Shown one piece after another: positions 3,653 through 6,849 of a stretch of DNA of 32,000 nt (position 1 is its first letter; each line of letters begins with the position of its first letter). Source of the stretch: Candidatus Jordarchaeales archaeon. GTDB taxonomy: Archaea; Asgardarchaeota; Jordiarchaeia; Jordiarchaeales; Freyrarchaeaceae. The stretch spans positions 374,356-406,355 of the forward strand of contig JAWAHN010000002.1 of assembly GCA_038889235.1 (NCBI GenBank), in the 5' to 3' direction. The notes under the pieces were generated by a model that was not told the origin of the DNA, made no database searches, and was given only the letters and a program-made list of their open reading frames with translations. The position numbers and the translations under genes are program-made.

Positions 3653-4672
3653 CTATATTAATCCAAGCTCCTTTCTTCTGTCTATCACCTCTCTCACGTC
3701 GCTACCCGTTCCTATTATCGTTACCGGCTTTTTCAAGCAGTCTTCTACTTGCTCTATAAACTCTACGGCTGCCCTCGGAAGCTCACTAAAGCTTGTCGCC
3801 CCCTTGCACTCATGATACACCACGTCAAGCTTAGTTATTGCTATCTGTGTCGCCCCGTTCAACCTTACTGCCTTCTTCGCAAGCTCGAAATTGAAGGGGG
3901 CAGCCCTTCTCTTCCTACCAGTAACAGTCGCCACTTCAAGCCACCCCCTCCTGGCAGCCTCCTCCTCGCTAAGCTCTCCTGGCAGGGGTCCTCCCCCAAC
4001 CCTCGTCACATATGCCTTAAAAACCACGAGAACCTCGTCCACTTTAGTCGGTCCTATGCCAACGTCAGCACACGCTTGAGACGCGGTCGTGTCCTTGCTA
4101 GTCACATAGGGGTACGTTCCATGGTATAACGACAAAAAGGTTCCCTGAGTGCCCTCTATTATAACATTATCCCCGCGGTCTATCGCCTCATTAACCTCAA
4201 GGGATACGTCAGTAAGGTAGGGCTTCAACTCCTCGACATCCCTAGCAAGCTTGACGGTCCTCAAAGCTCTCTCGGCGTTGCATGGACCGCACCCAGTGCC
4301 CGTGCTTCCAATTTTCCCCGAGAGGTGTTCAGATCCCTTATCCTGTTCTATATGTCTCTGCTCTATTATCGCGCAGTTGTAGTCTACGCCAACCCTACCC
4401 CAAACCCCGGTAGTGTTAACTTCGTCGAGAAATATTCTCGGATCCACGAGGACGCCTGCTCCTATGAGGACGCGCGCCCCCTCAAAAACAAAACCGCTCG
4501 GTATCTGTCTAAGCTTGAACTTTTTGCCGCCAAACTCTACGGTGTGTCCTGCATTAGTCCCGCAGCCCCCTCTCGCAGCCACAGAAACTCTATCCTTTAA
4601 GGCTAGGTAGGATACGATCTTCCCCTTGCCTTCGTCTCCGAAGAACCCTCCTACGACGACGTAGCATGTCAA
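3653..4672 (-). CDS. purA: Adenylosuccinate synthetase (short archaeal type)
   Basis: GGFFGDEGKGK, NAGHT, IGSTGTGCGP, EGTQG, YPYVTS, TRVGGGP and TVTGRKRR motifs. Confidence 0.97.
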   Translation of the reverse strand: MTCYVVVGGFFGDEGKGKIVSYLALKDRVSVAARGGCGTNAGHTVEFGGKKFKLRQIPSGFVFEGARVLIGAGVLVDPRIFLDEVNTTGVWGRVGVDYNCAIIEQRHIEQDKGSEHLSGKIGSTGTGCGPCNAERALRTVKLARDVEELKPYLTDVSLEVNEAIDRGDNVIIEGTQGTFLSLYHGTYPYVTSKDTTASQACADVGIGPTKVDEVLVVFKAYVTRVGGGPLPGELSEEEAARRGWLEVATVTGRKRRAAPFNFELAKKAVRLNGATQIAITKLDVVYHECKGATSFSELPRAAVEFIEQVEDCLKKPVTIIGTGSDVREVIDRRKELGLI

Positions 4673-4879
4673 GGCAGACCACCCGGATACTTTTAACCCA
4701 ACTCAAAAAGCGTTGACAACCTTAAAAACAGTTCGCCTCGACAACATAAAAGACACTGTACGTGAAAGCCGGAAAATAGTGGTTTCAAACACACGCTCAA
4801 CCGGCACGTGTAGGTCAGCCTCGGCTTCAGTCTTGAACCCGAAAAAGTATTAATGGCTAGGGGTAACTGTTTACCTAGT

Positions 4880-4949
4880 GGTGGGTGGCGATGATTTGAA
4901 AGAGAGACTGAACCGCGTGACGAAAAGGCATTTGAATGATGCCCCCACC
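4880..4949 (+). ncRNA. Box C/D guide sRNA (variant C/D boxes); D guide complementary to 23S rRNA CAAAUGCCUU
   Basis: C box ATGATTT 4891-4897, D' CTGA 4908-4911, C' GTGACGA 4917-4923, D ATGA 4936-4939. The U-A pair compensates for the usual G-C in the K-turn. Terminal stem GGTGGGTGGCG/TGCCCCCACC. TATA-like TATTAA lies about 27 nt upstream. Confidence 0.75.
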
Positions 4950-4971
4950 TTCTCTTCTGTTATTGTAAGCG

Positions 4972-5027
4972 TCAGCTCAATTAGGTCTCCTCATGGCTGC
5001 CGCTCGGGAGACCGTCGTAGTCATCAT
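4972..5027 (-). ncRNA. Box C/D guide sRNA; D' guide complementary to 23S rRNA AGACCGUCGU
   Basis: Minus strand reads ATGATGA-ctacgacggtctc-CCGA-gcggcagcc-ATGAGGA-gacctaattgag-CTGA (56 nt). C and D boxes are canonical, C'/D' are good, and guides are 12-13 nt. TATA-like TTTAAG at 5055-5060. Confidence 0.88.
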
Positions 5028-5202
5028 CTACAACTAACTTTAAGCTAAAACCCTCTTAAAGATGTTTCTGAAGTATTGAAAGGAAATTTAAGTACGAGGA
5101 GACAACAAATTTATTTTAAGAAGCTAAGTTGATGTTTGTCAAAAGGGCGTCTCACCCTCGTTCTGCGCAGCTCCTACCTAACTTCTTTCAGGTGGGTTTC
5201 TG

Positions 5203-6849
5203 ATGACGAAGTACGTCATGGTGACCGGTGGAGTTATGTCTGGTATAGGTAAGGGAGTTACAACGGCCTCCATAGGGAAGCTTTTCCAGTTTAGGAACTA
5301 CGACGTCGACGTGATAAAAATCGACCCCTACCTCAACGTTGACCCGGGAACTCTTAACCCCGTTGAGCACGGAGAAATTTTCATAACGGAAGAGGTCTGG
5401 GAGTTTAAGCCCGTTGAAGGTTTTAAGCTAACAATCTCGGAGCTAGACCAAGACTTCGGCACCTATGAGCGCTTTCTAGGGAAGACCGTCTCGCCAGAGC
5501 AGAACATAACCTCCGGCCAAGTCTACTTGACAGTAATACTTCAGGAGAGGCGTGGCGAGTTTCTCGGAAAGACTATCCAGATAATACCGCACATAACCGA
5601 TGAGATAAAGAGAAGGATAAGGACTGTAGCAGAGAAGAAGAAACCAGATGTGCTACTTATAGAGATCGGTGGGACCGTTGGAGACATAGAAGCGATGCCC
5701 TACCTGGAAGCTGTAAGACAGTTTAGGTTGGAAGAAGGAAAGAACAAGACCGCTCTGGTTCACGTCACATATGTTCCCTTCCTAGAGACGGTTAAGCAGC
5801 AGAAGTCCAAGCCCACGCAGCACAGTGTAAGAACGCTCCAAGGAATGGGCCTACAGCCGGACGTTATAGTGTGCAGGTCTGAGAAGCCCCTGACCGAGGA
5901 CGTGAAGAGGAAACTTAGCCTTTACTGCAACGTACCCCCTGAGGCAGTTATATCAAACCCTGACATAGACATCGTGTATAAGCTCCCCCTGTTGTTTGAA
6001 GAGCAGGGGCTAGGAGACTACCTATGCAACTTGTTAGGCTTACCCCCAAAGGCTCCAGACACGGAGAAGTGGAGGAAGCTCGTGTCGCTTTACGAGAACA
6101 CTAGAGAAGTCGTTAGGATAGCTATGCCTGGAAAGTACACGCAAATAGTGGACAGCTACATCAGCATTAACGAGGCCATAAGGCATGCGGCTGCCTTTTT
6201 CGGGGCGCGGCCTTACATAGAGTGGATAGACGCCTCACTTTTCGAGGAAGACCCTGGGAAGGTCGAGCTACTTGACTCGTTTGACGGAATCCTACTAACT
6301 CCGGGGTTTGGTGTGAGGGGCGTTGAGGGAATGATCCTCGCCGCAGAGTATGCCATAGAGGAAAAGATACCCTACCTCGGAATATGCTTCGGAGGACAGC
6401 TGCTCTTCATAGCCTTCTGCAGGAGCGTCCTTGGTTTAAGGAATGCTAATAGCTCCGAGGTAGACCCGAACACCCCCTACCCCGTAGTAGACCTCCTGCC
6501 TGAACAGAAGAACGTCAAGGATAAGGGAGGCACAATGCGCCTAGGCGGGCACAAAGTTTACATAGTTAGGGGGAGCAAACTTTGGGAGGCTTACAAGCAG
6601 GATGTTGTCGTCGAGCGCTTCAGGCACAGGTACCACATAATACCCGAGTACGCTCGAAAAGCAGAAGAGGCTGGCCTCAGGGTCTCGGCCTACGATGCGA
6701 CGGGCAAAATAATAAACGCCATAGAGCTCGAAGAAGGGTGGCTTGTCGGCGTACAGTTCCACCCGGAGTTCAAGAGCAGGCCGGATAATCCAAGCCCGGT
6801 ATACAAGGCCTTCATAGAGGCTTCACTCAAAAGAAGGAAGAAAGTGTAA
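5203..6849 (+). CDS. pyrG: CTP synthase (divergent, with an insertion in the synthase domain)
   Basis: TGGVMSGIGKG, KIDPYLNVDPGT, EIGGTVGDIE, KSKPTQHSV, and the glutaminase triad GICFG, FHPEF. Confidence 0.95.
   Translation: MTKYVMVTGGVMSGIGKGVTTASIGKLFQFRNYDVDVIKIDPYLNVDPGTLNPVEHGEIFITEEVWEFKPVEGFKLTISELDQDFGTYERFLGKTVSPEQNITSGQVYLTVILQERRGEFLGKTIQIIPHITDEIKRRIRTVAEKKKPDVLLIEIGGTVGDIEAMPYLEAVRQFRLEEGKNKTALVHVTYVPFLETVKQQKSKPTQHSVRTLQGMGLQPDVIVCRSEKPLTEDVKRKLSLYCNVPPEAVISNPDIDIVYKLPLLFEEQGLGDYLCNLLGLPPKAPDTEKWRKLVSLYENTREVVRIAMPGKYTQIVDSYISINEAIRHAAAFFGARPYIEWIDASLFEEDPGKVELLDSFDGILLTPGFGVRGVEGMILAAEYAIEEKIPYLGICFGGQLLFIAFCRSVLGLRNANSSEVDPNTPYPVVDLLPEQKNVKDKGGTMRLGGHKVYIVRGSKLWEAYKQDVVVERFRHRYHIIPEYARKAEEAGLRVSAYDATGKIINAIELEEGWLVGVQFHPEFKSRPDNPSPVYKAFIEASLKRRKKV

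Follow-up and report, generated by a model that had tools for sequence, protein, structure and literature searches.

Between the genes for adenylosuccinate synthetase and CTP synthase of a Candidatus Jordarchaeales archaeon lies an intergenic gap of 530 bp, and the question raised by this locus is whether 56 nucleotides on its minus strand encode a guide RNA that directs a modification of the ribosome and, if so, which nucleotide is selected and whether both guides of the RNA are used. An earlier note, made from the letters of the window alone (the whole stretch of 32,000 nucleotides that was analysed), had proposed a box C/D sRNA for a cytidine at the peptidyl-transferase centre.

The sRNA and its locus

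The host assembly consists of a 2.14-Mb genome in 8 contigs that is 95% complete. The pyrG gene of the window shares 89% identity with that of 'Candidatus Jordarchaeales / Jordarchaeum' MAGs and 73% with records of Jordarchaeia and Freyarchaeota, and DNA of the locus was detected in hot-spring metagenomes. A second hot-spring metagenome (run X2, from a different study) contains the same locus with one difference, T>C at 5029, which on the RNA strand is A to G two nucleotides before box C and would turn an A-U pair of the possible terminal stem into G.U. Despite the completeness of the assembly, only 12-14 tRNA genes were found in the host genome (ARAGORN with introns allowed; Rfam RF00005), the majority with introns, several of them at non-canonical positions. 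Such a low number implies either heavy interruption or splitting of most tRNA genes or their absence from the assembly. The gap extends from purA on the minus strand to pyrG on the plus strand, and the following genes are found around the 56 nucleotides:

3653-4672, minus strand: purA, adenylosuccinate synthetase (Pfam PF00709, E = 6.5e-82), downstream of the sRNA and on the same strand
4884-4947, plus strand: a second box C/D sRNA, with AUGAUUU, CUGA, GUGACGA, the D guide AAAGGCAUUUGA and the D box AUGA
5203-6849, plus strand: pyrG, CTP synthase

A direct reading of minus-strand positions 5027 to 4972 resolves the 56 nucleotides without remainder into the C-guide-D'-C'-guide-D layout that the earlier note had described:

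5021-5027, minus strand: box C, AUGAUGA; invariant in 11 aligned homologues
5008-5020, minus strand: D' guide CUACGACGGUCUC, 13 nt; its core CGACGGUCU is invariant in the 11 homologues
5004-5007, minus strand: box D', CCGA and not CUGA in most Jordarchaeaceae, a point against the C/D reading; CUGA in the relative G115 and in genus g64
4995-5003, minus strand: spacer GCGGCAGCC, 9 nt, a short hairpin closing the C'/D' motif, with pairing across the homologues
4988-4994, minus strand: box C', AUGAGGA; all 11 homologues keep UGA and the final GA
4976-4987, minus strand: D guide GACCUAAUUGAG, 12 nt, an orphan guide
4972-4975, minus strand: box D, CUGA; invariant in the 11 homologues

The GA dinucleotides of D' and C' are intact and invariant across the homologues, and the guide spacings of 13 and 12 nt and the total of 56 nt lie within the archaeal criteria of about 12-nt spacing and a length of 50-70 nt; homologues measure 56-61 nt, with the exception of long-spacer forms in genus g22. 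The spacer hairpin behaves as a conserved structure: 91% of the cells of its four proposed pairs are paired and two pairs show compensatory changes, compared with 11-48% in slid controls. The terminal stem is weak. In the host, 7 bp with a 3-nt offset are possible (-6.1 kcal/mol), 12% of shuffles fold equally well, and most homologues do no better than shuffled flanks. Strong terminal stems are absent from many archaeal sRNAs. An open reading frame on the plus strand (4878-5048, 56 aa) runs over both sRNAs, and a coding reading of it is ruled out, as close relatives differ there in length by indels of 1-2 nt.

When the full layout is written as a strict regular expression, it has one match in the 2.14-Mb genome, which is the sRNA at 5027-4972, and none in five block-shuffled genomes or in the reversed genome; the motif therefore did not arise by chance from base composition. 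Looser patterns separate less clearly from the controls, with 5 genome matches for a relaxed layout versus 0-3 in controls, and a loose half-guide scan for rRNA-targeting sRNAs gave 267 matches versus 261-294, which is the background level. Relaxed layout scans of the host genome returned further candidate C/D sRNAs at C2:58150 (+), C2:114549 (-), C1:1045750 (-) and C1:1100863 (-), of which the one at C2:114549 has in common with the RNA studied here the CCGA D' box and a GC-closed hairpin spacer, and carries the C' box GUGAGGA. The C/D sRNA repertoire of the genome appears small for a hot-spring archaeon, with a handful recognisable, and the guides that are retained would therefore point to the most important rRNA methylations.

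The earlier note had also credited the RNA with its own TATA-like element, and this claim stood only in part. The element UUUAAGAG (5060-5053) stands at a suitable distance, about 23-27 nt, upstream of the likely 5' end, but its conservation was looked for among the homologues and not found, which leaves the claim unsupported. In a metatranscriptome (X8, about 3% of the run, from the study that also yielded the likely source sample) and in RNA contigs from a second study (X11), nothing mapped to positions 4550-5350, and the flanking genes were equally uncovered.

Guide complementarity to ribosomal RNA

The host genome has a single copy of each of the two large rRNA genes against which the guides were compared:

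C1:894187-897271: 23S rRNA gene
C2:20259-21755: 16S rRNA gene

The sequence AGACCGUCGU, to which the D' guide had been said to be complementary, occurs once in the host rRNAs, at 2712-2721 of the large-subunit RNA (contig C1:896898). Guide positions 2-12 upstream of D' form 10 Watson-Crick pairs and one terminal G:U with 23S 2712-2722, the only rRNA match of such quality for this guide, and, as is usual, the guide nucleotide that adjoins D' stays unpaired. By the N+5 rule, position 5 upstream of D', a G, lies opposite host C2715, so that the complementarity of at least 8-9 bp to rRNA or tRNA expected of a guide is present in the N+5 register. In a pairwise alignment with E. coli K-12 rrlH, host 2712-2721 corresponds without gaps to E. 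coli 2587-2596 and C2715 to 2590, exactly as predicted from the window; E. coli itself has an A at 2590. The homologue of this position in yeast is Cm2959, guided by snR73 (PMC5199042), and the homologous sites are Cm4506 in human (U35A/B), Cm2949 in Arabidopsis (AtU35) and Cm3292 in Dictyostelium (PMC8817022), which bears out the equation with the yeast snR73 and SNORD35 site that the earlier note had made. The target sequence is kept in the 23S RNA of the relatives wherever this is assembled.

The D guide behaves differently. Compared with the 23S and 16S RNAs and their 300-nt flanks, GACCUAAUUGAG found no acceptable partner and nothing with at least 9 clean pairs in register; its best rRNA match comprises 10 contiguous pairs, three of them G:U, at SSU 1263 in the wrong register. 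Genome-wide, two 12-nt matches with one G:U each stand against about 1.5 expected by chance, and no tRNA or rRNA gene was detected at either of them. We also considered whether the D guide is the decayed remnant of one that addressed E. coli C2606, as that of Pyrobaculum sR30 does, or the 2560-2572 region, and rejected both ideas, with only 5-bp fragments matching. The D guides of the relatives, including those of g64 when compared with g64's own 23S RNA, have no rRNA partner either, and they vary in sequence and in length (12-14 nt). As an rRNA target is lacking and the sequence drifts, the D guide is marked as an orphan, the very possibility raised in the earlier note, and it probably persists mainly as the spacer of about 12 nt that the RNP needs. 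Orphans of this kind are common and make up 28% of the guides in Pyrobaculum (PMC6009581).

The second sRNA is convergent with the C2590 guide, with the 3' ends about 25 nt apart, and no other block of the intergenic region is conserved as well. Its D guide AAAGGCAUUUGA forms 10 bp with 23S 2061-2070, which selects A2064 (E. coli A1938), and its D' guide found no target in the rRNA. Its C box AUGAUUU and D box AUGA would combine through a U-A pair in place of the usual G-C; the g64 homologue has G.U at that position (UUGAUGA / UUGA) and a covarying terminal stem of 10 bp.

The host encodes fibrillarin (PF01269, E = 1e-96) and Nop5 (PF01798, E = 1e-68) in adjacent genes of a Nop5-fibrillarin operon, and two PF01248 hits represent L7Ae. 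The protein machinery for guided 2'-O-methylation is therefore present. From the layout, its rarity, the complementarity in register, the protein genes and the conservation pattern described below, we infer that the RNA is transcribed, assembled into an RNP and used for methylation. In all likelihood it is a box C/D sRNA of a Jordarchaeia (Asgard) archaeon that functions with a single guide and directs 2'-O-methylation of C2715. After transcription, its C/D and C'/D' motifs would fold into kink-turns, the internal one being closed by the short hairpin; L7Ae would bind the kink-turns, and a Nop5 dimer would recruit two fibrillarin molecules. In the nascent rRNA, the D' guide would then pair with helix 93 of the 23S RNA on its 5' strand (host 2712-2722), and fibrillarin would use SAM to methylate the 2'-OH of C2715. 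This nucleotide lies opposite guide position 5 and, as E. coli position 2590, is five nucleotides away from U2585 in the peptidyl-transferase centre. Only the D' half would be used in this way, during ribosome assembly, with the D guide serving mainly as a spacer.

Conservation among Asgard archaea and alternative explanations

Syntenic homologues are present in all five Jordarchaeaceae genomes (the host, G000, and G112-G115). Boxes and D' guide core are invariant among them, whereas the D guide drifts and the intergenic flanks can hardly be aligned. A pattern search and R1, a sequence model derived from 11 homologues, detected the same RNA in other Asgard genera, namely in 4/4 genomes of g64, a genus with genomes of 1.3-1.4 Mb, and in 6 genomes of g22. 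R1 scored the Asgard homologues with E = 1e-17 to 1e-5 and had no other match in 136 Asgard genomes. A core ACGAYGGUCU, located one nucleotide before D' and selecting the first C of AGACCGUCGU, is shared by the host with 15 other Asgard genomes, from three genera in all (16 genomes with the host). The full C' box RUGAGGA occurs in nine of the 11 aligned sequences, those from Jordarchaeaceae and g64, and AUGAAGA in the two from g22.

These conservation data bear on whether the motif could have arisen by chance or be a decaying, unexpressed pseudogene. A relic would agree with the weak terminal stem and with one guide being an orphan already, but three Asgard genera have boxes and D' guide without variation whereas the intergenic sequence next to them cannot be aligned, and the shuffled genomes held no strict match, so that we regard this explanation as highly improbable. 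The distribution of the RNA is nevertheless restricted. Pattern search and R1 did not find the C2590-guide RNA elsewhere among 136-400 Asgard genomes, and it was found neither in the sister family (Freyarchaeia-like, f2) nor in the named Freyarchaeota, Baldrarchaeum and Helarchaeota genomes. It is therefore dispensable in many lineages. Relaxed-pattern matches in the Freyarchaeia-like sister family were rejected, as they lack a C box and lie in coding-like sequence.

Common to the g64 and the Jordarchaeia RNAs are a hairpin spacer of the form GCU-NNN-AGC and an unusual C' box, AUGAGGA. In one g64 genome (L068), purA follows the homologous sRNA 170 nt downstream on the same strand, and an antisense partner sRNA accompanies the g64 homologue as well. 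Spacer, C' box, downstream purA and antisense partner together identify the g64 RNA as an orthologue, and a two-sRNA cassette upstream of purA, consisting of the C2590 guide and the convergent guide for the H71 region, has been kept between Jordarchaeia and g64. In g64 (L068-L071, about 1497-1740), the order is C2590 guide, antisense H71-region guide and purA, and the upstream neighbour is ThiN, not pyrG.

The recurrent position upstream of purA on the same strand, at 300 nt in the host and 170 nt in g64, could also be read as that of an L7Ae-binding kink-turn element in a long purA leader that regulates purA, with the rRNA complementarity being secondary; binding of L7Ae to mRNA kink-turns has been proposed as a means of translation control (PMC5539422). 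However, the convergent sRNA gene with a promoter-like element of its own intervenes before purA, and the guide RNA of g22 has unrelated neighbours (an ABC ATPase and Rio2). Furthermore, an invariant 10-nt antisense to 23S rRNA would be left unexplained, and we consider regulation of purA to be a very unlikely function. At the g22 locus L062, the sRNA (1489-1555) ends 6 nt before a gene for a Rio2-type kinase (1561-2493), a ribosome-biogenesis factor. In the g22 sRNAs the hairpin spacer is long (up to 37 nt), and the D guide, AGUUGCACUU, is conserved.

In every lineage in which the RNA was found, the D' guide has exactly the same register relative to D', and this helps to distinguish methylation from pairing as such. 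Chaperone roles have been proposed for archaeal sRNA-rRNA pairing (PMC4644070, PMC7994747), and the RNA might accordingly pair with helix 93 mainly as a folding chaperone for the rRNA, methylation of C2715 being absent or incidental. The reduction of the pairing to just 9 bp in g64 was weighed in favour of such a role. However, the chaperone models are based on two guides that bridge rRNA segments, and the second guide is an orphan here; and a strictly kept register is expected only if the N+5 nucleotide matters, which disfavours an exclusive chaperone role. We thus think it unlikely that folding assistance is the main task, and guided methylation of C2715 remains the preferred reading. The cassette beside purA is a clean case in which to study guide-RNA persistence during the decay of the second guide.

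Comparison with known guide RNAs

Rfam searches place the RNA among box C/D sRNAs only in a general way. Over the whole window, no family reached its gathering threshold, and only generic C/D matches below the threshold appeared at permissive E-values. A relation to SNORD35 or to archaeal sR families, for which the earlier note had suggested such a search, was thus borne out in part: the guide, its half and its register align with SNORD35, but all families stay below the gathering score. The SNORD35 match (RF00211) has 14.9 bits versus a gathering score of 36 and E = 0.82 in a 191-nt search, with only box C, guide and D' aligning, and the archaeal sR families have 10-18 bits versus 37-60, the best being sR11 with 18 versus 39. 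The Pyrococcus families sR11 (RF01150), sR28 (RF01136), sR41, sR42 and sR3 align over the whole 56 nt and share the generic architecture and the length; with 13.6-18 bits versus gathering scores of 38-54 and with other guides and targets, they resemble the Jordarchaeia RNA in boxes and spacing only.

Much closer counterparts exist among Thermoproteota. For the D' guides of Ignicoccus hospitalis sR27 and Pyrobaculum calidifontis sR30, the predicted target is 23S C2864 in the pan-archaeal alignment of Dennis et al. (2015; PMC4644070), and by an offset of 274, which we derived from the equivalences given there, C2864 is E. coli 2590. Ignicoccus sR27, which was seen in RNA-seq, reads ACGACGGUCU-C-CUGA after box C and thus has an identical D' guide in the same register (PMC4644070); it differs in that it belongs to Thermoproteota and has a D guide assigned to 23S G2322, whereas the D guide of the Jordarchaeia RNA is without a target. 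The D' guide of Pyrobaculum sR30 is predicted to methylate the same cytidine, C2708 in Pyrobaculum, but sR30 is a dual guide whose D guide addresses the opposite strand of helix 93, at C2724 (E. coli C2606; PMC6009581). It comes from a different phylum, and no detectable sequence similarity to the Jordarchaeia RNA is shown beyond boxes and guide. Among 151 sampled genomes of Thermoproteota, R1 found D'-guide sRNAs with the same core and offset in at least 11. The site is therefore already a known archaeal target, and the RNA is an unannotated new example of its guide in a new phylum-level lineage; our literature search on Asgard archaea and box C/D sRNAs found no description of Asgard C/D sRNAs. 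With this RNA, an Asgard class that has been little studied gains a methylation guide with good support, and the current understanding of C/D sRNPs is left unchanged.

The eukaryotic guides for the homologous LSU cytidine are SNORD35/U35A,B, snR73 and AtU35, which direct its 2'-O-methylation. The SNORD35 consensus continues after box C with ACGAUGGUCU-U-CAGA, and thus has the same guide in the same 5' (D') half and in the same register as the Jordarchaeia RNA. The eukaryotic SNORD35/U35 RNAs differ in being longer (88 model positions) and often intron-encoded, with degenerate C'/D' boxes and no second 12-nt guide. Antisense core, one-nucleotide offset and use of the 5' half are thus common to Thermoproteota, three Asgard genera and the SNORD35 consensus. 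This may reflect one vertically inherited C2590 guide that is older than the split between Thermoproteota and Asgard archaea and continues in eukaryotes as U35/SNORD35/snR73, a reading that we put forward as tentative and rather doubtful, as shared descent is unproven and may easily be confounded by convergence. If it were true, this guide would be among the few snoRNAs traceable to an archaeal ancestor by descent and not by convergence. Whichever history applies, the Cm2959/Cm4506 site beside the peptidyl-transferase centre is targeted by guide RNAs in Asgard archaea, in crenarchaea and in eukaryotes.
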